The position numbers and the translations under genes are program-made. A stretch of 64,000 nt of DNA, taken from Nitrosopumilus sp. (GTDB lineage: Archaea > Thermoproteota > Nitrososphaeria > Nitrososphaerales > Nitrosopumilaceae). The first letter of the stretch is position 1. Each line of letters starts with the position of its first letter. Of this stretch, positions 9,238-48,985 are shown one piece after another. Under the pieces are notes generated by a model. That model had not been told where the DNA came from, searched no databases, and saw only the letters and a list, made by a program, of their open reading frames with translations. Location: positions 2,368,001 through 2,432,000 of the forward strand of contig OZ244651.1 of NCBI GenBank assembly GCA_965218695.1, in the 5' to 3' direction.

Positions 9238-10836
9238 GTAACTGTGTAGTTTTTTGATCAAATGCTGAATTCCATGTCTCCAAGAAACTATGTATTTTTT
9301 TGACATAGGACCAGACCCTCGCGCAGGACCGTGCCAAGATCATCTCCCCTTGCCTTGCATGTCTGCTTGATGCTCATCAGCGTGGCAATGGCGTCTGCGC
9401 CCTTCTTTGACCTGCTCCCGTTGCTGTTCTTGCGCAGGATGACGCACGGCCTGATGGCCCGCTCTGCCCGGTTGTTGTGGTATTCGACATCGTCTGTCTC
9501 CAGAAACGCAAACAGGTGATCCCTTTCCCGCACCAGCCTCTTGCGCATCCTGTTGCAGTGCTTGCAGTCGCGGTTCTTCTCGAGCCTGCCTATCATGGAC
9601 GCGATGCGACGATCCAGCCTCTTCTTTGCGGCAAGCGCGTCTGCCCCTCCCGGAACGGCGCCGTCGACGTGCGAGTCCCGCAGTATCGCGCGCAGCGTCC
9701 TTGCGTGCCGACGGTAGTCCTGGCCGGGATTCTTGTATCTCAGGGTGGCCTTGACGTCCCGGACGTAATGCAGGTGGCACTTTTGGTGCATGGCTCCTAT
9801 GACGTTCCACGCTCCCCACGAGTCAGACGTCACGCATCCCGGGTAGTCCTTGCCGAGCATCTTTTTTGGAACCTTCGAGTTCCTGCGGCGGTGCACCTCG
9901 TAGATTACGGCGTACCTTGTTACCACCGCCCACAGCCAGTAGTTCGTGCCGTCGACGCGCCAGACGGACTCGTCCCCGTTTATCGCAGGCGAGTTTCTTA
10001 CCTCCTCCTTGATCTTCTCGTACAGCGGCCCGAGCTCCCGGGCCATCCTGCACACCATACGGTTTATCGCAGATTCCGTGATTCTTGCCGAGTACATCAT
10101 CATGACAATATTGCATATTCTGAGGTCTGACATGCCGTGCAGCCTGAGGATGACCATCATTATCATAAAGTTGATCCCGTACCTGGAGTTTGGCAGTGCC
10201 AGCGGAGTCCTGCCGGACACGGTCTTCTTGCAGTTCCTGCAACGTCTTCTCTTTACTGTCACCTTGATGTGCTTTAGTTCCGTCTTGGCAGCCTCCCTTA
10301 CCACCTTTGTGTACGTGGATACGCACTCGGAGAGGTCGGAGCTGCCGCAGTTGTCGCACGTGTGGGGATCTGCCGTCTCCTCTGCGTCTATTCTTTCAGG
10401 ACGCGCAAGGCCCGTGCGCCTGTGGACGCTTGGCTTGCCCTTGGCCTTTGTGCGGCGTCTGGCACTGCCCGTCTTTTTGTCAGGTTTTGCGCCGATGCTC
10501 CTTGCAACGGCAGCCGATATGGTGCCCCTTGCTTCCTGCAACTCTGCCGTGAGGTCCTGGATCTGCCTGAGGGCGGCAGCGTAAAGATCAGTGAGTTTGG
10601 CTATCTGCTGGTCCTTTTTGGCCAGCTGCCCTGCCATCATCTCCACTTTTTCCTCCAGTTCTGCAATCCTTGACTCGGAATTATCATCAGACATAATGCA
10701 AACCGTGGGAACTGATGATCTAAAAATTGGAATGGAGAGAAAAACTCGATCAAGTGATTAAAAATAGTTTCAAAAAAACTACACAGACGTTTGTAGGCAT
10801 GGAATTCAACATTTGATCAAAAAACTACACAGTTAC
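9238..10836 (-). mobile_element. IS66-family single-ORF element, copy a
   Basis: About 39-bp TIRs GTAACTGTGTAGTTTTTTGATCAAATG...; 8-bp TSD CTTTCGTG at 9230-9237 and 10837-10844. Confidence 0.92.
9288..10694 (-). CDS. IS66 transposase
   Basis: CxxC zinc motifs, GDESVW, QKCHLHY and HNNRAERAIRP. Confidence 0.92.
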   Translation of the reverse strand: MSDDNSESRIAELEEKVEMMAGQLAKKDQQIAKLTDLYAAALRQIQDLTAELQEARGTISAAVARSIGAKPDKKTGSARRRTKAKGKPSVHRRTGLARPERIDAEETADPHTCDNCGSSDLSECVSTYTKVVREAAKTELKHIKVTVKRRRCRNCKKTVSGRTPLALPNSRYGINFMIMMVILRLHGMSDLRICNIVMMMYSARITESAINRMVCRMARELGPLYEKIKEEVRNSPAINGDESVWRVDGTNYWLWAVVTRYAVIYEVHRRRNSKVPKKMLGKDYPGCVTSDSWGAWNVIGAMHQKCHLHYVRDVKATLRYKNPGQDYRRHARTLRAILRDSHVDGAVPGGADALAAKKRLDRRIASMIGRLEKNRDCKHCNRMRKRLVRERDHLFAFLETDDVEYHNNRAERAIRPCVILRKNSNGSRSKKGADAIATLMSIKQTCKARGDDLGTVLREGLVLCQKNT

Positions 10837-10851
10837 CTTTCGTGTTGTTTC

Positions 10852-12064
10852 GGGTGTGTCCTAGTAATAAAAAATGCCATCCCATGTACCAGAATGCCAA
10901 AGACACGATTGGTGCCAGAACCCGTCGACGCCAACAGTGCCGCACCATCGATCCTCCACAACCCATAAAATCCCCCAAATCCAAGACACTGTGCGGAGGC
11001 TCCGCTAGGAGGCGCGTGTCAAGACGCGCCGGTTACGCTGCAAGTGTCGCGATTTGATCCTGTGTGAGCCTGCCGTCTTTTGCCTGCAATCTGGCCACGA
11101 GCTCGATGTTGTAGCACATGACACGGATCGCAGTCTCCCTTGTCCGGTTCTCGTGTTTTCGGCACCTGGTGCTGTCCCCGTACATCTTCTTGAGGGCGGC
11201 AAAGACTGCCTCGATGATGCTGCGCTGGTGGTATTCCGAGTCAAACCTGTCCCGTTCATCCATGTACAGGCTTACCATCTCGCGCCACGACTGGCTTCCC
11301 CTGGCGTTGCGTATGGTGTTGGATTTTGGCTTGATGCGGGGTACCATTCCCATCGCAGATATCATGTTGCACATTAGCCTTGCCAGGTATGCAGAATCCA
11401 GGCAAAAGTCGCCGGTGCCCCGGCCTAACCTGCCGAGCATCGCGTACAGCCCGTTTATGTCTGCCACTGCGCTGTCAGTCACCATGCAGTCGATTATCAC
11501 CCTGGTGCGTATGTCCACGATTGCGTGCAGTTTGACCCATCCCTTTCTGGTACGAAAACTGTCGGTCCTGACGTCAAACCACCTGACAAACCGCAGGTAC
11601 GAGTATCCGGTACCGTCTGCTGCCAGGGAGCCTGCCTCCACCTCCCTGATGGCAATCCGGTGTGCCTCTGCCAGGTACCATTCCGGGATCAGGCCGTAGG
11701 CGCGTGCTATCGTGCTCTTGGAGGGAATTTTCTCTAGGCCCATCTTGGCTGCCATGGCGCTATTGTTTCGGAGGATGCCGACCATCTTACGGTAGGTCGT
11801 GCGCTGTGCCTCAAGCATGATGCAGACAGCTGCCATGGCGCCAGGCGGGTATGCCGTCATGCCGCCCAGACCGGGCCTGACGGCGTACGGATCCCCAAGA
11901 TTCTTGATTATTCCCAGCACGGTATTCAGCATGAGGCCCGACAGGTACTGCTGAACCAAATCGTACTGTCGTTGGTCGCGTTTCTTTGTAGTCATTAGGC
12001 GATGCCGTGATCCGCCGATCCATATCTTTTGTCATCCGGGGGTATATGCCTCTAGGACACACCC
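10852..12064 (-). mobile_element. IS5-family (IS903/ISH1-like) element
   Basis: TIRs GGGTGTGTCCTAG / CTAGGACACACCC; 9-bp TSD TGTTGTTTC at 10843-10851 and 12065-12073. Confidence 0.88.
11033..11995 (-). CDS. IS5-family DDE transposase
   Basis: ADGTG, WVKLHAIVD, LDSAY and YHQRSIIEAVF motifs. Confidence 0.9.
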   Translation of the reverse strand: MTTKKRDQRQYDLVQQYLSGLMLNTVLGIIKNLGDPYAVRPGLGGMTAYPPGAMAAVCIMLEAQRTTYRKMVGILRNNSAMAAKMGLEKIPSKSTIARAYGLIPEWYLAEAHRIAIREVEAGSLAADGTGYSYLRFVRWFDVRTDSFRTRKGWVKLHAIVDIRTRVIIDCMVTDSAVADINGLYAMLGRLGRGTGDFCLDSAYLARLMCNMISAMGMVPRIKPKSNTIRNARGSQSWREMVSLYMDERDRFDSEYHQRSIIEAVFAALKKMYGDSTRCRKHENRTRETAIRVMCYNIELVARLQAKDGRLTQDQIATLAA

Positions 12065-17838: not shown

Positions 17839-18378
17839 TCAGTATTTTTGGAGGGTGTCCTTGTAGCGCTTTATGGAGCCGATGATGACAGACTTTGCAT
17901 CATCAGACGGCTTCCACCCCATTATCTCGACTTTCTTTCCCTCCAGATCCTTGTAGACCTGGAAAAAGTGGGCAATCTCGGAGCGGTAGTGATCCTCGAT
18001 GTCTGTGATGTCTGCGGCGTGAAGGTACCGCGGGTCGTTGGTGGAGACGCAGATTATCTTGTCATCGAGCTTTCCGTCATCCATCATCTGCAGCAGCCCG
18101 ATGGGTCTTGCCTCTATGAGGATGCCAGGATACGTGGGGTTGGTGACCAGCACCAGGGCGTCAAGCGGGTCTCCGTCCTCAGAAAGTGTCTGGGGGACGA
18201 GTCCGTAGTCCCCCGGGTAGTGGAACGGCGAGAACAGGACCCTGTCAAGCTTTATCAGGTTGTGTTTTTTGTCGTACTCGTACTTGTTCATCGAGCCCTT
18301 TGGAATCTCCACGATCACGTTGATTATCTCCGGGATGTCGATTCCCGGTTCGATGTCGTGCCAGAAGTTCTTGGTCAT
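17839..18378 (-). CDS. ppa: inorganic pyrophosphatase (family I)
   Basis: EIPKGSMNKYEY, YPGDYG, DGDPLD and DDKIIC motifs. Confidence 0.95.
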   Translation of the reverse strand: MTKNFWHDIEPGIDIPEIINVIVEIPKGSMNKYEYDKKHNLIKLDRVLFSPFHYPGDYGLVPQTLSEDGDPLDALVLVTNPTYPGILIEARPIGLLQMMDDGKLDDKIICVSTNDPRYLHAADITDIEDHYRSEIAHFFQVYKDLEGKKVEIMGWKPSDDAKSVIIGSIKRYKDTLQKY

Positions 18379-18556
18379 CTGGCTACAGGCGGCACGGTTT
18401 GACATATGAATTATGGTTCTGTTAACTTATCAAGATCTGCTGGTGGCTGTTAACAGTCGTGATCTGGCTCTGGCAAATTTTTGTGATTTTCTTCCCAACG
18501 TTTACCAAAATCATTGCCAGCACATGTATTATATTTTTAATAAAAAATACAAAATT

Positions 18557-18573
18557 CGAAAGCATTTAAATAA
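18557..18573 (+). promoter_or_regulatory. putative BRE/TATA promoter of tnpB, now separated from it by a 3.2-kb insertion
   Basis: CGAAAGCATTTAAATA lies about 22-29 nt before the tnpB ATG in the reconstructed pre-insertion allele. Confidence 0.55.
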
Positions 18574-18758
18574 AAAATGTGCTTTATTGTAATAGAAGCC
18601 ATGCGTAATCCCTCCATTTCGTTGGGTTAAACCAGAAAAACCCAGAAAATATTAAAAATTCTGATTTAATTCTCGCCATGTTAGCCATGTGGGGATCCTG
18701 TCCTGCCAGAAATACAAAATAACGTGCGCAACCTTGCAGCACCACGATGTGCACGGAA

Positions 18759-20072
18759 TTAATTGTTTGAAACGGCGCTGCCGGGGACGTTTGCCTCTTC
18801 CCAGTTTATTACCGGCCCCAGCGTGCTACCTGAAGGAGGTCCTTTCTTCATCTGGTTCCACAGGAGGTCCAGGTTTACGAGTCCGGTTATTATGTTAAAT
18901 TCCCTGTTAAAGTCGCCAATCTTTCCCTTGTATGGCGCGGTAAGCCGGCCGTACCGCTTCAGCCTGCCGATGGAGTGCTCCACCTTTACCCTGGCCGAGT
19001 TGACGGCGTGGTTGTGCTCCTTTTCCTCCTTTGTAAAGCGCTTGTGGTTCTTGGTCTTCTTGTGCGGCTGCAGGGTGTTTGTGCCGGGCAGATCCTTTGC
19101 GATTCCCTTGTAGCCGCGGTCAGTAAGGGTGTGGATCCTGTCCTCTTCGGGGGTGTTCTCGTCGCACATGCGGTCCCACCATTTTCCAAACGGCAGCGGG
19201 CTCTCCCTGAGCAGCGTGATGTCGTGGACGGATCCCACGGTGCTGCCGGATATGGCGACTATCACCCCGTTTTCATTTATGCAGACTGTGGTGTTGAGCG
19301 TGAATTTCTTCTTCTTGCCCGAATACATCATGCTCCTCATCTGTTTTTCGTCCGGCCTCTGTATGGGGCAGTGCGTGCCGTCGATCATCATGATGCCCCC
19401 GTCAGGCCCGGAAATTATTTTTTTGAGATCCTCTTTTGTCTCCGTGCCTGCTATCTCCTTTGATATGTTGGCAGCAGTGGGCAGCGCCGCCTCGAGTACC
19501 GCGTCCATGACGTCGATGTACCTGGACACGGTCGCCTGGTCTATTCCAAAGAATGCCGCAAGCGCGCCCTGCGTGGGGTTGCCCTTTTTGTACATCAGTG
19601 ACATGAGTAGCGCGTGCCTTGGGTACAGCTTGCAGCGGTTCCCGGGATCCGACGCCCTCGTCTCGTCGTTCCTGAAGAGCGGGGATTTGCCGCTTTGTCT
19701 TATCCATGCCTCGGCCCTGTCAAGTATGTACTGGAATTGCCCCCTGCCCTTCAGCGTCGCGTCATGAAGCTTCTTCCCGACGCCGATGACGTCGTCAAGC
19801 ACCTCCACGCGGTGCAGCAGGGCGGGCTCCCCTGCGGCTCCGGACTCGGAGCCGTCCCGCGTGCTCCACAGGCTTTGCTCGTGCTTGGCGGCTGCCTCCA
19901 AGCGCTTGATGTCAGCGTCCTGGCGCTTGATGTCAGCGTCCTGGCGCTTGATGTCAGCGTCCTGGCGCTTGATCATGTATCTGAGAGCCTTGTTCTCTTT
20001 TTGCAGGTCACTTGTTTCCTGATTCGACAACAGTATGAACCGGCATATTCTGGTTTTAATTGGATGGATCAT
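18759..20072 (-). CDS. DDE_Tnp_4-type transposase
   Basis: IDGTHCP, TDRGYKG and RVKVEHSIGRLK motifs; near-identical to 43649-44941. Confidence 0.92.
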   Translation of the reverse strand: MIHPIKTRICRFILLSNQETSDLQKENKALRYMIKRQDADIKRQDADIKRQDADIKRLEAAAKHEQSLWSTRDGSESGAAGEPALLHRVEVLDDVIGVGKKLHDATLKGRGQFQYILDRAEAWIRQSGKSPLFRNDETRASDPGNRCKLYPRHALLMSLMYKKGNPTQGALAAFFGIDQATVSRYIDVMDAVLEAALPTAANISKEIAGTETKEDLKKIISGPDGGIMMIDGTHCPIQRPDEKQMRSMMYSGKKKKFTLNTTVCINENGVIVAISGSTVGSVHDITLLRESPLPFGKWWDRMCDENTPEEDRIHTLTDRGYKGIAKDLPGTNTLQPHKKTKNHKRFTKEEKEHNHAVNSARVKVEHSIGRLKRYGRLTAPYKGKIGDFNREFNIITGLVNLDLLWNQMKKGPPSGSTLGPVINWEEANVPGSAVSNN

Positions 20073-20140
20073 AAATTTTTGACAGCAGGGCTAACATGTC
20101 AGCGCGGAGTTTGAAAAAGTTCCGGATTACGCATATTTTC

Positions 20141-21781
20141 GTAACTGCATAGTTTTTTGATCAAATGTTGAACTCCATGCCTACGCGCGTCTATGCAGTT
20201 TTTTGACGTGGAGCCAGGCCCTCGCGCAGGATCGTGCCAAGATCATCTCCCCTTGCCTTGCATGTCTGCTTGATGCTCATCAGCGTGGCAATGGCATCTG
20301 CACCCTTCTTTGACCTGCTCCCGTTGCTGTTCTTGCGCAGGATGACGCACGGCCTGATGGCCCGCTCTGCCCGGTTGTTGTGGTATTCGACGCCGTCTGT
20401 CTCCAGAAACGCAAACAGGTGGCCTTTTTCCCGCACCAGCCTCTTGCGCATCCTGTTGCAGTGCTTGCAGTCGCGGTCCTTTTCGAGCCTGCCGATAAGT
20501 GACGCAATACGACGATCCAGCCTCTTCTTTGCGGCAAGCGCGTCTGCCCCTCCCGGAACGGCGCCGTCGATGTGCGAGTCCCACAGTATCGCGCGCAGCG
20601 TCCTTGCGTGACGCTTGTAGTCGTAGCCGGGATTCTTGTATTTCAGGGTGTCCTTGATGTCCCGGGCGTAATGAAGGTGGCACTTTTGGTGTTCGGATCC
20701 GATGACGTTCCACGCGGCCCACGAGTCAGACGTGACGCATCCCGGGTAGTCCTTGCCGAGCATCTTTTTTGGAACCTTCGAGTTCCTGTGGCGGTGCACC
20801 TCGTAGATTACGGCGTACCTGGCTACAGCCACCCACAGCCAGTAGTTCGTGCCGTCGACGCGCCAGATTGTCTCGTCCCCGTTTATCGCAGGCGAGTTTC
20901 TTACCTCCTCCTTGATCTTCTCGTACAGCGGCCCGAGCTCCCGGGCCATCCTGCACACCATGCGGTTTATCGCAGATTCCGTGATTCTTGCCGAGTACAT
21001 CATCATGACAATATTGCATATTCTGAGGTCTGACATGCCGTGCAGCCTGAGGATGACCATCATTATCATAAAGTTGATCCCGTACCTGGAGTTTGGCAGT
21101 GCCAGCGGGGTCCTGCCGGACACGGTCCTCTTGCAGTTCCTGCAACGCCTTCTCTTTACTGTCACCTTGATGTGCTTTAGTTCCGTCTTGGCAGCCTCCC
21201 TTACCACCTTTGTGTACGTGGATACGCACTCGGAGAGGTCGGAGCTGCCGCAGTTGTCGCACGTGTGGGGATCTGCCGTCTCCTCTGCGTCTATTCTTTC
21301 AGGACGCGCAAGGCCCGTGCGTTTGTGGTCACTTGGCTTGCCCTTGGCCTTGCCCTTGCCCTTTGCGCGGCGCCGGGTACTGCCGGTCTTTTTGTCCGGT
21401 TTTGCGCCGATGCTCCTTGCAACGGCAGCCGATATGATGCCCTTTGCCTCCTGCAACTCTGCCGTGAGATCCTGGATCTGTTTGAGGGCGGCAGCGTAAA
21501 GATCAGCGAGTTTGGCCATCTGCCGGTCTTTTTCGGCCATCTGCCGGTCTTTTTCGGCCATCTGCTCTGCCATCACACCCACTTTTTCCTCCAGTTCTGC
21601 AATCCTTGACTCGGAATTATCATCAGACATATGCAAACCGTGGGCAACAATGATCTAAAAATTAGGACGGAGAGAAAAACTCGATCAAGTGATCAAAAAT
21701 AGTTTTAAAAAATTAGACAGACGCGGATTTTCTGATTGTAGATATGGAGTTCAACATTTGATCAAAAAACTACACAGATAC
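20141..21781 (-). mobile_element. IS66-family single-ORF element, copy b
   Basis: Same TIR family as 9238-10836; 8-bp TSD ATATTTTC at 20133-20140 and 21782-21789. Confidence 0.92.
20191..21636 (-). CDS. IS66 transposase
   Basis: Close paralogue of 9288-10694. Confidence 0.92.
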   Translation of the reverse strand: MHMSDDNSESRIAELEEKVGVMAEQMAEKDRQMAEKDRQMAKLADLYAAALKQIQDLTAELQEAKGIISAAVARSIGAKPDKKTGSTRRRAKGKGKAKGKPSDHKRTGLARPERIDAEETADPHTCDNCGSSDLSECVSTYTKVVREAAKTELKHIKVTVKRRRCRNCKRTVSGRTPLALPNSRYGINFMIMMVILRLHGMSDLRICNIVMMMYSARITESAINRMVCRMARELGPLYEKIKEEVRNSPAINGDETIWRVDGTNYWLWVAVARYAVIYEVHRHRNSKVPKKMLGKDYPGCVTSDSWAAWNVIGSEHQKCHLHYARDIKDTLKYKNPGYDYKRHARTLRAILWDSHIDGAVPGGADALAAKKRLDRRIASLIGRLEKDRDCKHCNRMRKRLVREKGHLFAFLETDGVEYHNNRAERAIRPCVILRKNSNGSRSKKGADAIATLMSIKQTCKARGDDLGTILREGLAPRQKTA

Positions 21782-21794
21782 ATATTTTCTAATA

Positions 21795-22982
21795 ATGAAA
21801 GTAACAAAATCAGTCTGGCAGTTCCACGACAAGAATGATGAACTGGTCGGTTATTTTGAGGAATTCAGGCGCATCACAAACGAGTCTGTCCGTCTTGGAT
21901 TGGAACGCGGGCTGACTTCAAGAAAATCTTTCCACGAGTCAATATATCCAGAACTAAAAAGTGACTTGTACGCATCTGTCAAACAGTGCGCGATCTATTC
22001 GGCAAAATCCATGTTGAAAGCAATGCGCACGAACAGGAGAAAAGGCAGGAAAGCCGGAACTCCTTACGTCACTGGAAGGGTGTTGAAATTCAACAACCAG
22101 GCATGCAAGATTGCAGGCGGATGCGTGGAGCTGTCGATAAAGGTCGAGACAAGGATAAAAATCAAGCTGTCGTCATACGTGCTAGAAAAAATAGACGGAA
22201 TGAACCTGGGAGGAATCACTGTCACTCCGAATAAGATAATATTATCGTATTCTAAAAAAATCGAAGAAAAAACTCCCACAGGATACATTGGAATAGACAT
22301 GAATTTTGACAACGTGACTACGTGCAACACTGACGACAGGATAACCAAGCACGACCTGTCAAACGTTGGCAAGATAAAACATAGATGCAGGGAAACAGTC
22401 TCGCATTTCAAGCGAAATGACTACAGGATAAGAAAAAAGATAGCCGGCAAGTACGGCAGGATTGGAAAAAACAGGACGAATGACATCCTGCACAAGACCA
22501 GCAAGAGAATAATCGAAGCCGGACACGTTCCGGTTAGGGAAGATTTGGAAGGAATTTCAAAACTGTGGAACAAGAAAAACAAGAGGGGAAAGAATGTCAA
22601 CTTCCGGGGCAAGAACTGGAGATATTACGAACTTGGAAGACAGCTGGACTACAAAGCCAGATGGAACGGAATCGTTCCAATAAAGATAAATCCAAAAGGC
22701 ACAAGCTCGAAATGCGCGGGATGTGGTGGAAAGATGTCAAACGCCGAAGAGCGCAGAATGGTGCGATGCCCTGTAGGAAACATCACGGTAGACCGTGACA
22801 AGCACGCAAGTATCAACATACTTGCACGAGGCCTGAAGGTCGGGCCCGTAGGATCCGCAAGTGAAGCGATGGGGATGGATAGCCACGAGAGGATAAGTCT
22901 CATGGTGAAGAATTCAGTCGATGCGGATCAGTTGGCAAATTGCAGATCACGGCGGTTAACAGCCGTCAGCAGATCTCGATGA
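21795..22982 (+). CDS. tnpB: TnpB RNA-guided endonuclease
   Basis: RuvC-I YIGIDMN, RuvC-II REDLEGI, QLDYKARWNG, TSSKCAGCG zinc ribbon and RuvC-III DRDKHASINI. Confidence 0.92.
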   Translation: MKVTKSVWQFHDKNDELVGYFEEFRRITNESVRLGLERGLTSRKSFHESIYPELKSDLYASVKQCAIYSAKSMLKAMRTNRRKGRKAGTPYVTGRVLKFNNQACKIAGGCVELSIKVETRIKIKLSSYVLEKIDGMNLGGITVTPNKIILSYSKKIEEKTPTGYIGIDMNFDNVTTCNTDDRITKHDLSNVGKIKHRCRETVSHFKRNDYRIRKKIAGKYGRIGKNRTNDILHKTSKRIIEAGHVPVREDLEGISKLWNKKNKRGKNVNFRGKNWRYYELGRQLDYKARWNGIVPIKINPKGTSSKCAGCGGKMSNAEERRMVRCPVGNITVDRDKHASINILARGLKVGPVGSASEAMGMDSHERISLMVKNSVDADQLANCRSRRLTAVSRSR

Positions 22983-23012
22983 GTTAACAGAACCTGAATT
23001 ATCAGAAATGGG
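22820..23012 (+). ncRNA. putative omegaRNA overlapping the tnpB 3' end and the right TIR
   Basis: Long-range stem GATCCGCA (22852-22859) / TGCGGATC (22922-22929) and hairpin ACGGC..GCCGT. The position matches established TnpB omegaRNA geometry; boundaries are estimates. Confidence 0.5.
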
Positions 23013-23045
23013 TCAGGGTGTTGTGGCTGGCAAGACACGGTTCTG

Positions 23046-23480
23046 TTAGGCCAGCAGATTGGTGTTTGGCACAACCCTGAAGATGTGCACGGAGTAGTCC
23101 CCCGAGAAGAGGTTTACGTACTCCCCAGTCAGGGCGTCAAGGTTTCTGACTCGGAATATGTACTCGTACGAGCCGTCATCGAGCGGATCGACTTGCGCGG
23201 TGTGGACTAGATCCACATTTTGATAAAACTGGATTACTACCGCATAGCCGTCAACATGTTCGGACGGTTCCCCGCTGACTGCCCCCCAGGGATGCGTGTT
23301 GGTCAGGGGGATGTTCATTGGTATGACAGTCTTTTCCATGCTGATCTCCTCGTTTAGCGGAACGACTGTGACAGTCCCGACATTTGGTTCTGCAGACACG
23401 ATTGCCGGAATGCCGATCATGCCAAGTACGGCCATTGCAGAGACAGTCATGAGAAGACCCGATGTTATCATTGTTAGCAT
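23046..23480 (-). CDS. secreted hypothetical protein
   Basis: N-terminal signal peptide followed by a beta-rich domain. Confidence 0.75.
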   Translation of the reverse strand: MLTMITSGLLMTVSAMAVLGMIGIPAIVSAEPNVGTVTVVPLNEEISMEKTVIPMNIPLTNTHPWGAVSGEPSEHVDGYAVVIQFYQNVDLVHTAQVDPLDDGSYEYIFRVRNLDALTGEYVNLFSGDYSVHIFRVVPNTNLLA

Positions 23481-37837: not shown

Positions 37838-38942
37838 TATACTGACGATCAAAAGTTTGTGCACAATGCCTCATATTTTCGGCTGGTAAATTTGAGGATG
37901 TCAAGCTTGAACCTGGCGGTTCGATAATACAACGAAACTGCCCGGTGCATGTCCTGAAATGTCCGGTAATATTCCGAGACGAGCAGGACGCGCTTTCCTT
38001 GGTGCCAGCATTCCTCCATCGCGTTGAGGTACGGCGAGCCCTTTGGCAGATAGATCATCTTGACATCCCTGTTGCTGCGCAGAAATTCCTTTACCAGTTT
38101 TGAGCGGTGCTGCGGGGCCCGGTCTGCCGTCACTACCACCTTGCCAAAATGCCGGTGCAGATCCTTGAGGTATCTGACAAACGTGGGTCCGTCAAATTTC
38201 TCGTACGTCCGGAAAAACTGCCTGCCGTCTTTTGCGATCGAGCCGTACGCTGCGATCCTCTTGTGGCTGCCGGTGTACGGCACGCTTATGGGATGGCCCA
38301 CCAGGGACCAATATTTACGGCCGACTATCACGTCGTGTATGAAGATTGCCTCGTCCTCCATTACCGTGGTAAATCCCTCCTTTTCTAGGCGTGAAACGCG
38401 CTTGTTGAAGCGGTATTTCCAGTTCTGCACGGCCTTTTTGTTGGCCCTGTTAACATGGACTTTCCGTGGTGCCTTCGGGGACAGGCCGTACTGGTGCATG
38501 ATCTTCCTGACGTACGTGATGTGAAGCTTTACGCCCGTGTCATGGTGTATGTTCTGTTGCAGTTCCGAGGGCGTGATTTTATGGCATGCCGTCTTTGCAA
38601 TTATTCCGTCGATGACGTCTTGCGGGATCTTTCTGGGCCGTCCGCATCTGGGAAGATCACGGAGGCCTTGCAGGCCTCCGTCATCGAAGCGGCTCAACCA
38701 GTTGCGGACCCAGTTTGGGCTCCGTCCTTGGATGTCGGCAGTCTCCTCCACGGTCATGTTGAACACGCGAACCATGCGTACCGTGACCATCCTAGCCCGA
38801 ACCTTGTGGTCTTTTTCTTTTTTGCACGCTTTTTTTAGTTCTTCCAGTTTGGAGTCGTCCATGTCTCCATGAAAGAAAGTCTGATCTAGAAACTTTGCGG
38901 TTGGCTAGGGCATTTGCTCAAAGACTTTTGCGTGTCAGTATA
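37838..38942 (-). mobile_element. IS630 type 3, copy a
   Basis: Ends TATACTGAC / GTCAGTATA; appears identical to 59482-60586. Confidence 0.9.
37849..38862 (-). CDS. IS630 transposase (intact)
   Basis: EDEA, ADRAPQH and PYLNAMEECW motifs. Confidence 0.92.
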   Translation of the reverse strand: MDDSKLEELKKACKKEKDHKVRARMVTVRMVRVFNMTVEETADIQGRSPNWVRNWLSRFDDGGLQGLRDLPRCGRPRKIPQDVIDGIIAKTACHKITPSELQQNIHHDTGVKLHITYVRKIMHQYGLSPKAPRKVHVNRANKKAVQNWKYRFNKRVSRLEKEGFTTVMEDEAIFIHDVIVGRKYWSLVGHPISVPYTGSHKRIAAYGSIAKDGRQFFRTYEKFDGPTFVRYLKDLHRHFGKVVVTADRAPQHRSKLVKEFLRSNRDVKMIYLPKGSPYLNAMEECWHQGKRVLLVSEYYRTFQDMHRAVSLYYRTARFKLDILKFTSRKYEALCTNF

Positions 38943-47916: not shown

Positions 47917-48985
47917 TCTCCTGCAACCTTTCAGGACTGGAAGGGCAAGTTCCTGCAGGGAGGCAAACATGCTCTCATAAACAGGGGAGATGCGGCCAAA
48001 AACCATTTGGCAGAGGTGGAAAACCTCAAGCGCATAATCGACAAGATCACCGTAGCCAACGACATTTTAAAAAAAACTTTGGAGGGAACAAAGTGATGAG
48101 AATGCAGGCCATCAGTGATGTAAGCAGGCACATGAGCCTGAACAAGGCCCTGCAGTACTGCGGCATGTCCAAGCATGCCTGGTACTACACCAAGAAGCCA
48201 AGAGACGTGGCCATGGACCCGGACGTGGTTGACGTGGTAAGAACCATAGCCTCCAAGCGTCCCACGTACGGAACCAGGCGCATGGCAGCGCAGGTCACCA
48301 GGGAGACAAACATTCCAACAAATCGCAAGAGAATACAGCGAATATATCACAAAATAGGCTGGATCGAGCCCAAAAAGACTAAAAACGACATCATTCGTGC
48401 CTCAAGGCGCAGGAGGTTCAAGCCCACCGCACCCAACCAGCTATGGGAGACTGACATAACGTACATCCACTGCGGGATTGATGGATGGTGCTACTGTTTC
48501 AACGTCCTTGACGTGTTCACCAGAAAGTGGGTGGCGTACATGTTTGACACCACGGCTCCTGCCCACACGGCAGTGCAATCGGTGCTAAAGGCGGTGTCGT
48601 CTGCAGGAGAGATCTCAAACCTGAGGCTCAGGACCGACAACGGTTCCCAGTACAGCAGCCGCGAATTCAAAAAGGCCATGCAGGCACTGGGGATAAGACA
48701 CGAGTTCATCTGGAAGCAGACGCCGGAGCAGAACGGACACGTGGAGTCATTCCACGGGACGCTCAAGAGGGAGTACATCTGGCCGCATGAATTTGCACGC
48801 TTTCAGGATGCCGAGGTCGTGCTTGCAAAGGCCTTTGAGGACTACAACAAGGACAGGATCCATTCGGCGCTGGGATATCTTACACCTGATGAGTTTGTAG
48901 GCAAGATGGAGGTTGGGAATAAATGAGAGGCAGGATTATTCGGAAAAGATGCAAAAAGTGGTACCAAAAACAGGGGTCCAGATCA
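47917..48985 (+). mobile_element. IS3-family element, 5'-truncated
   Basis: orfA tail to 48096, A8C slippery site near 48069-48077, right end ...GGGGTCCAGATCA. Confidence 0.82.
48093..48926 (+). CDS. IS3-family OrfB (rve integrase core)
   Basis: WETDITY, TDNGSQY, ESFHGTLKRE and RIHSALGYLTP motifs. Confidence 0.92.
   Translation: MMRMQAISDVSRHMSLNKALQYCGMSKHAWYYTKKPRDVAMDPDVVDVVRTIASKRPTYGTRRMAAQVTRETNIPTNRKRIQRIYHKIGWIEPKKTKNDIIRASRRRRFKPTAPNQLWETDITYIHCGIDGWCYCFNVLDVFTRKWVAYMFDTTAPAHTAVQSVLKAVSSAGEISNLRLRTDNGSQYSSREFKKAMQALGIRHEFIWKQTPEQNGHVESFHGTLKREYIWPHEFARFQDAEVVLAKAFEDYNKDRIHSALGYLTPDEFVGKMEVGNK

Follow-up and report, generated by a model that had tools for sequence, protein, structure and literature searches.

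A tnpB gene carried between IS6-type terminal inverted repeats in Nitrosopumilus, and its probable mobilisation in trans

Introduction

A 64,000-nucleotide stretch of the genome of a Nitrosopumilus species (contig OZ244651.1, positions 2,368,001 to 2,432,000; referred to here as the window) carries a tnpB gene that is bounded by terminal inverted repeats (TIRs) and by an 8-bp target site duplication (TSD), in an element that has no transposase gene of its own. This arrangement raises the question of how the gene is moved. Elements of the IS200/IS605 type, as described in the cited part of a 2026 review, have no TIRs, make no TSD and move as single-stranded DNA through the Y1 transposase TnpA (PMC13565253). 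An original prediction, made from the sequence of the window, proposed that a TnpB clade had been taken up by IS6-type ends and was mobilised in trans. The analysis reported here supports that proposal with further copies, with their ends and with separately encoded transposases, transposition itself being read from its products. The element is probably non-autonomous, with TnpB and its omega-RNA placed between TIRs of the IS6-family type and mobilised in trans by IS6-like DDE transposases. The host is an ammonia-oxidising archaeon, as indicated by its match to archaeal AmoA (3.4e-116).

Results

A TnpB-only element is inserted beside ppa

The whole element occupies positions 18415-22994 of the window. 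The 52-nt TIRs, identical at 46/52 positions, and the perfect TSD that had been predicted were recovered both by reading of the sequence and by a repeat search, the latter extending the arms to 58 nt at 86% identity. Both tips of the element read GGTTCTGTTAAC, and CTGTT is present. An IS5-like and an IS66-family element are nested inside it; these had been placed at 18594-21793, which was right to within a few bases, and the boundaries of both were set by BLAST against the genome, where many other copies occur. After removal of the nested elements ~1.38 kb remained, with tnpB as the sole long open reading frame (ORF), in agreement with the 1380-bp unit of the original prediction.

The ppa gene (17839-18405, minus strand) begins two bases from the TSD. 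The empty allele that had been expected upstream of ppa was found in two species of the same genus, G002 and G018: the sequence there is ...GACA(C/T)A-TGAATTAT-CAGAAA..., in which TGAATTAT occurs once and no element is present. Judged by these empty alleles, the insertion in the window appears to be the product of a real transposition event.

As a chance control, all GGNNCTG...CAGNNCC pairs with a spacing of 80-9000 bp were collected genome-wide. The flanking 8-mers differed at no more than one position in 33 pairs, and just 7 of these also had an end identity of at least 13/24. Six of the 7 rows corresponded to real elements, the window element included, and two rows had one right end in common.

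With the element 2 bp upstream of the start codon of ppa (window 18403-18414), transcription of this gene must now start in the left TIR or further inward. Ends of the IS6 family can create hybrid promoters, according to the part of the IS6 family review cited here (PMC7986276).

The element belongs to a family of TnpB-only elements

Other copies with different 8-bp TSDs had been expected, and 20 distinct TnpB-only elements of 1091-1451 bp were found in Nitrososphaerota and Bathyarchaeia; their ends are of the GGTTCTG type, and their 8-bp TSDs are perfect and all differ from one another. In two of the Bathyarchaeia elements the first 17 end bases were those of the window element. Within the host genome (G000), tblastn detected several tnpB paralogues, two of which had clear ends and a perfect TSD (C1:765674-767011, CTTGCATG; C1:825049-826376, TTTTGATA). 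A further copy was 97.3% identical to the first of these over 1339 bp, and the match coincided with the TIR-bounded element to within one base; the extent of the mobile unit is thus fixed independently of any motif. The host genome also contained a degraded right end, comprising the tnpB 3' end and TIR (82% identical; C1:966762-966853), and a second, distant TnpB lineage (449 aa) that finishes in a related inverted repeat. A copy of the same subfamily as the window element (82% nucleotide identity) was present in G002 at another location, with the TSD TGAACAGC and its own IS5-like insertion.

The TnpB clade was detected at E<=1e-25 in 58/401 genomes of the class (four unpublished genomes included, whose loci were not read), and the named relatives of the TnpB came from Nitrosopumilus, Nitrosotenuis, Nitrosotalea and similar genera. 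The sample of relatives comprised 43 locus records, representing 42 distinct places, together with 80 named public loci. A TIR pair with a perfect TSD was found in 10 of the 43 records, and a TSD matching at 7/8 positions in 2 more. A strict scan of the 80 named loci identified 21 with an end pair identical at 14/20 positions or more, two of which overlap the former sample; the TSD had no mismatch in 9 of the 21 and one mismatch in 4, and when the 8-mers were displaced 10 nt outward as a control, 0/21 had two mismatches or fewer. The right ends were compared for a common terminus, as the original prediction had suggested, and finished consistently in CAGAACC or CAGAGCC wherever an end could be defined.

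Solitary ends and miniature elements were also observed. The host genome contained a transposase-less miniature element of 401 bp (C1:1558402-1558802) and, at C1:452491 and C1:747074, solitary left ends of the same bipartite architecture with other boxes (GTCGCCTG, GGCACCTG). In genome G017 (C1:1184159-1187186, locus L123), two 270-bp miniature elements with GGTTCTGCTAAC-type ends flanked a 283-aa ORF, and the outer flanks of the pair were an identical 8 bp (TCATTTTT), which would fit joint movement of the two as a composite.

IS6-like transposases with similar ends are encoded separately

The host genome contained an intact 2699-bp element that encodes a 370-aa IS6-like transposase; its two ends were identical over 24 nt (24/24), with the tip GGTTCTGT, and were flanked by the TSD CTGTGGCA. 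Proteins of this family have an N-terminal zinc-binding part and matched PF13610 (2e-13, 51 bits; cut-off 27). Scores against the NCBIfam IS6 model NF033587 were 116, 115.9, 124.7 and 125.9 bits, over the full 202-position profile, with a cut-off of 125. IS6-like transposases were present at E<=1e-30 in 176/401 genomes of the class (five unpublished genomes included).

Of 26 transposase loci, 14 were resolved as elements of 2.1-4.0 kb with GGYTCTGT ends and a perfect 8-bp TSD. The ends of the transposase elements were bipartite, as in the window, with two copies of CTGTnAA-N4-6-box. The box varied by subfamily (GGCTCA, GGGACA, CGGTTGA and others), and identical boxes reappeared in TnpB-only elements. 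Over end positions 9-30, 11/28 TnpB-element ends matched one of the 28 transposase-element ends better than at least 98.4% of shuffles did (for example, at 19/22 and 17/22 positions). In line with the expectation of an IS6-type transposase with the same ends, separate elements have like ends, 8-bp TSDs and a PF13610 transposase; none of those found has the GATCTG-box end subclass of the window element.

The transposase and tnpB were never neighbours, since tnpB was present in 0/32 transposase loci and the transposase in 0/51 and 0/80 TnpB loci (131 TnpB locus records, some of them duplicated). In the host genome, which is 99.99% complete, there were 0 matches to Y1 TnpA (PF01797) and 0 matches to the serine recombinase domain (PF00239).

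Several of the IS6-like transposase elements also contained a 121-aa ORF without a family match, upstream of and divergent from the transposase gene (L009:2523-2888; L054:6787-7152 and 10707-11072). At some loci (L054, G021:C1:1776000-1792000; L091-L120) the transposase elements were arranged head to tail, with an identical 8-bp spacer between neighbours (TGTTTCGA in G021), and 7/14 elements with a perfect TSD abutted the end of another element at exactly 8 bp. The flank ATAAGAGTAT-TGTT(T/C)TAG-AAA was common to three genomes. Arrays with a single 8-bp spacer resemble IS26 inserting beside a resident copy, or may reflect a conserved hot spot; for cointegrate formation they are suggestive only.

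Positions 18466-18489 of the window, just inside the left TIR, were alike at ~20/24 positions to the end (GGCTCTGGTAAATT...) of a different, highly repeated element on contigs C3 (7000-11046, L011), C4, C9 and C1. This repeat was set aside; its 377-aa ORF had no Pfam match and no likeness to IS6-like transposases.

The right TIR is predicted to form the last stem of the omega-RNA

The window TnpB matched the Cas12f1-like TNB domain (5.5e-16). The RuvC residues D168, E249 and D335 were present and were invariant in 12/12 aligned family members. The alignment to ISDra2 TnpB (8EXA family) takes in the glutamate and the second aspartate of the DRD motif, and E and D335 aligned with catalytic residues. 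In the family alignment the fourth zinc-finger cysteine was lost in the window TnpB only.

The last 195 nt of the element folded far better than shuffled sequences (z = -5.74), and in 17/21 elements the terminal 70 nt of the right end had a lower folding energy than those of the left end. An alignment of 14 right ends yielded three helices. The middle helix is a 7-bp stem that closes a conserved GAAGCGATG...GTCGATG region. In the last helix, the six bases that follow the middle stem pair with bases 7-12 from the element tip, inside the TIR. In the covariation analysis 95.7% of cells were paired, compared with 69.7% in shuffles (0/500 as high) and 27-39% when the partners were slid; the helix model was derived from the same sequences on which it was tested, which favours it somewhat. 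Changes on both sides were seen in 13/17 pairs. In the last helix the TIR variants GTTAAC, CTTTAC, GTTATC and GCAAC were each mirrored by the internal strand. An Rfam scan of positions 18300-23200 at E<=10 returned only two matches, both at chance level.

From the position of these helices, the omega-RNA scaffold is predicted to end about six bases before the tip, in which case the guide would correspond to the TSD and the flank. When 25 independent insertions were oriented by tnpB, a T was present 3 nt upstream of the TSD in 21/25 and the next base was T or A in 22/25; at the mirror positions downstream the bias was weaker (A in 10/25 and 13/25). The T bias upstream of the TSD is like that of a target-adjacent motif and may represent one.

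Anatomy of the window copy

The features of the element and of its nested insertions are listed in Table 1.

Table 1. Coordinates of the TnpB element and of the insertions nested within it (positions in the window)
Feature	Position	Strand	Remarks
Left TSD copy	18407..18414	.	TGAATTAT; 8 bp, perfect; single copy in the G002 and G018 empty sites
Left TIR	18415..18466	+	Bipartite, two CTGTTAAC-N6/7-GATCTG sub-repeats; tip GGTTCTGT, as in IS6-family ends; 46/52 identical to right TIR
Left-end interior, former tnpB upstream region	18467..18592	+	Severed from tnpB by the nested insertions
Nested IS5-like element	18593..20140	-	Outside the TnpB element proper; ORF 18759-20072, DDE_Tnp_4 1.2e-27; many genome copies align exactly here
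Nested IS66-family element	20141..21781	-	Transposase ORF 20191-21636 (2.2e-35); 44-nt inverted repeats at 20141-20184 and 21738-21781
tnpB	21795..22982	+	395 aa; NF040570 121 bits (cut-off 100); ORF stop inside right TIR
Predicted omega-RNA scaffold	22830..22994	+	Hairpin ~22830-22846; closing stem 22853-22859/22922-22928; terminal stem 22931-22936/22983-22988, within right TIR
Right TIR	22943..22994	-	46/52 identical to left TIR
Right TSD copy	22995..23002	.	TGAATTAT; start of the putative guide region

The IS66-family element sits in the last bases of the IS5-like element and has its own TSD, ATATTTTC, at 20133-20140 and 21782-21789. In the G002 copy ~113 nt separate the left end from the aligned start of tnpB. 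The window copy is old: its TIRs have diverged at 6/52 positions, its upstream region has been split off by the IS5-like and IS66-family elements, and its TnpB has lost one zinc ligand.

The only gene that belongs to the window element itself is tnpB, and an IS6-type transposase is not encoded by it; lacking its own transposase, the element is at most a non-autonomous IS6 derivative. Its ends have the GG tip and CTGTT, the caaa motif of the IS6 type is absent from them, and they are bipartite over 52 nt as compared with 15-20 nt.

Both known copies of the window TnpB subfamily have been entered independently by the same IS5-like element (94.7% identical). In the host genome the insertion lies just upstream of the ATG; in G002 (L055) it lies inside codons ~50-64, in the opposite orientation. 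Among contigs from four sequencing runs there was no joint that spans the whole element, and an 18466-21798 join (29 letters, 90%) was too weak to use.

Discussion

The preferred reading is that IS6-like DDE transposases encoded elsewhere would recognise the ends of the element and insert it with an 8-bp staggered cut, giving the TGAATTAT duplication next to ppa. Throughout the family the right TIR would also form the final omega-RNA stem, and the guide would accordingly be read from the TSD and the DNA beyond it. TnpB would then cut element-less alleles beside the T-rich motif just upstream of the TSD, and recombinational repair of the cut allele would copy the element in, by homing.

A number of results weigh against this reading or narrow it. 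One concerns the window's own ends. The best agreement of their GATCTG-box subclass with transposase-element ends was 11-12/22, which is the control level, and a transposase partner with the GATCTG box was not found: when 151 genomes of the genus were searched with 64 nt of DNA, full copies were returned only from G000 and G002, with partial matches to the two 270-bp miniature elements of G017, to one solitary end without an element in G018 and to one end in G427. On these comparisons the partner of the window copy may have been lost or is one yet to be recognised. The NCBIfam IS6 score of the partner proteins was at or below the curated cut-off in 3/4 of them. Co-occurrence was modest: the transposase was present in 37/58 TnpB-positive and 139/343 TnpB-negative genomes (33/54 and 138/342 without the unpublished genomes), a count made by hand from two genome surveys that appear to rest on the same draw, among relatives that are not independent. 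In the locus samples, 8 of the 43 records had clear ends with non-matching flanks, and no end pair was recognised by the scans (as distinct from by hand) in the other 23, nor in 59/80 named loci, some of which lie at contig ends. With regard to the omega-RNA and its target, the comparison of folding energies between left and right ends did not discriminate for the terminal stem, as the two strands of the right end, sense and antisense, gave no difference; at the window's own site, position -3 is an A instead of a T.

The absence of a recognised partner for the window's end subclass would also be explained if the elements were moved by another DDE family that makes 8-bp TSDs, such as one of the IS1595/ISH4, ISH6 or IS66 types, and the likeness to IS6 ends were convergent. 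The genome does harbour many other insertion sequence families, including IS5-like and IS66 elements, a 404-aa family with a weak PF13610 match and GGTTCTC ends, and the unclassified C3 repeat. This explanation is nevertheless considered unlikely, given that the ends have GG-TT-CTGT in common with IS6-family ends as these are set out in the cited part of the family review (PMC7986276), and that an IS6-like protein is encoded by every transposase-bearing element found to share both the bipartite layout and the internal boxes. It is less probable still that the element is autonomous and is transposed by TnpB or by some unrecognised activity encoded within 1.3 kb. No transposase adjoins any TnpB locus examined, and the IS6-like transposase was absent at E<=1e-30 from 21/58 TnpB-positive genomes, as such an element would allow; many of the transposase-negative genomes, however, are fragmented draft assemblies, and insertion sequences often fail to assemble in drafts of this kind. 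The combination of inverted ends and an 8-bp TSD is characteristic of staggered cutting by DDE enzymes, and it is established that TnpB, an RNA-guided RuvC nuclease, is dispensable for transposition, as stated in the cited part of the 2026 review (PMC13565253).

The remaining explanation, that an ordinary tnpB of the IS200/IS605 type (IS1341 group) was inserted once into a resident miniature inverted-repeat transposable element (MITE), to which the TIRs and TSD would belong, is the least probable and highly unlikely. Miniature elements that have the same ends and no transposase do occur, both the 401-bp one in the host genome and those of 270 bp in G017, and a 9-nt direct repeat, TGGCAAATT (18471-18479 and 22934-22942), at first seemed to mark an internal boundary. 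The repeat was ruled out as the edge of an inner IS605-like unit, since it is absent from the left side of the G002 copy. The tnpB ORF and the covarying RNA structure extend into the right TIR in every subfamily, and elements of 1.1-1.45 kb leave no room for separate IS605 ends. Internal ends of the IS605 type, which the original prediction had named among the findings that would overturn it, were looked for and none was found; nor was a Y1 TnpA or a serine recombinase found in the host genome. Capture of tnpB by a MITE is possible as a single ancient origin, and not as a description of the window locus.

The pairing of TnpB with DDE transposons is not in itself new. The main text of Altae-Tran et al. 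(2023, PNAS) describes six DDE-associated TnpB branches (DDE-1 to DDE-6), all with inverted terminal repeats, together with some solo TnpBs that have those ends on both sides and for which movement in trans is proposed, and an omega-RNA 'guide adapter hairpin' that encompasses the transposon end (PMC10691335). The elements described here are similar in that TnpB lies inside a TIR transposon, solo copies would move in trans and the RNA reaches the transposon end. They differ in that IS6 is not named in that main text, where IS630 is the only DDE family named (PMC10691335), the cited part of the 2026 review naming ISL2, IS630 and IS1031 (PMC13565253), and in that the transposase was never beside tnpB in the loci examined here.

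The original prediction had left it open whether its pairing was already in print. The general association of TnpB with DDE transposons and TIRs, with solo copies in trans, has been published in the main text of that study (PMC10691335), so the surprise is smaller than had been assumed, and an IS6 partner was not found in print. No mention of such a partner was found in the literature searched, although supplementary branch lists may contain one. A full-text search for TnpB with 'IS6 family' returned papers that, by title and abstract, concern resistance plasmids or Deinococcus, and a literature search for TnpB with non-autonomous elements, DDE transposases, inverted repeats and archaea returned nothing on an IS6 pairing. 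A 2026 census of archaeal insertion sequences makes no mention of TnpB (PMC13343696). The part of the IS6 family review cited here (Varani et al. 2021; PMC7986276) reports just one passenger-gene member and two MITEs, and does not use the word TnpB. The principle itself has been published. Within the literature searched, nothing was found in print on an IS6-type partner, on an arrangement strictly in trans, on a spread through Nitrososphaerota and Bathyarchaeia or on covariation between TIR and RNA stem.

Classical IS6/IS26 elements are ~800 bp long, with ends of 15-20 bp and one transposase gene, according to the same part of that review (PMC7986276). By comparison with this description, the 8-bp TSD and the GG tip followed by CTGT are shared and the partner proteins match IS6 models, with NCBIfam scores around the cut-off, whereas the ends described here are bipartite and up to 52 nt long and the window element has no transposase. 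The IS6-like partner elements also depart from the classical form, being 2.1-4 kb long with a 370-aa zinc-finger transposase and extra ORFs. Like the IS1341 group of IS200/IS605, the window element has tnpB as its sole gene, a predicted omega-RNA over the 3' end and a size within 1.2-1.5 kb. Unlike IS200/IS605, it has TIRs (46/52), an 8-bp TSD, no Y1 TnpA in its host genome and flanks without a fixed 4-5-mer. It differs likewise from IS607 in the presence of TIRs and a TSD and in the 0 matches to PF00239 in the host genome. A further parallel is found in the eukaryotic Fanzor1, a TnpB homologue that is a passenger of DDE transposons making TSDs and for which the cited parts of two sources suggest a contribution of the TSD to the target-adjacent motif or the guide (PMC3627910, PMC13565253). 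Fanzor1 differs in being eukaryotic or viral, in belonging to other transposon superfamilies and in being usually co-encoded with, or close to, the transposase, as described in the same parts (PMC3627910, PMC13565253).

The preferred reading bears on why TnpB is retained. IS6-type elements are generally understood to copy in through cointegrates, without excision. Restorative homing, which fits IS605 and IS607, is the current account of TnpB retention: the nuclease cuts the scar of scarless excision, and the account is used in the cited part of the 2026 review to explain the rarity of TnpB with DDE transposases (PMC13565253). A large and phylogenetically wide family with TnpB always in trans provides a natural test case for other roles, among which homing into empty alleles, gene drive in polyploid archaea and help with cointegrate resolution are candidates.

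A more far-reaching proposal can be put forward only tentatively, as it is rather more likely to fail than to hold. The OMEGA module may be a long-lived, pure hitch-hiker on IS6-type transposons in Nitrososphaerota and Bathyarchaeia, never co-encoded with the transposase; the right TIR would then serve both as transposase binding site and as guide-adapter stem, the two co-evolving, and the T-rich position would be the target-adjacent motif. If this is true, TnpB cannot work by restoring an excised donor site and must either home into empty alleles or stimulate the recombination that resolves cointegrates, and the benefit of TnpB would be separated from excisive transposition.

In practical terms, the family offers compact archaeal TnpBs of ~370-400 aa, for which the end of the scaffold can be defined and a short T-rich motif is a candidate. 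Judged by their ends, the 'solo TnpB' genes that carry an IS200/IS605 annotation in ammonia-oxidising archaea are part of another kind of transposon.

Other observations in the window

An end-like word, GGTTCTGTTAG, was present at 23039-23049, 45 bp past the right end of the element and within an ORF of 144 aa that has no Pfam match; chance or a remnant of another end could account for it. A weak match to PF13610 was observed at 48444-48827, in a 338-aa ORF. Other insertion sequences in the window were found at 38443 and 60087, both copies of an 8-copy element with the end GGCCCTGTTAACATGG.

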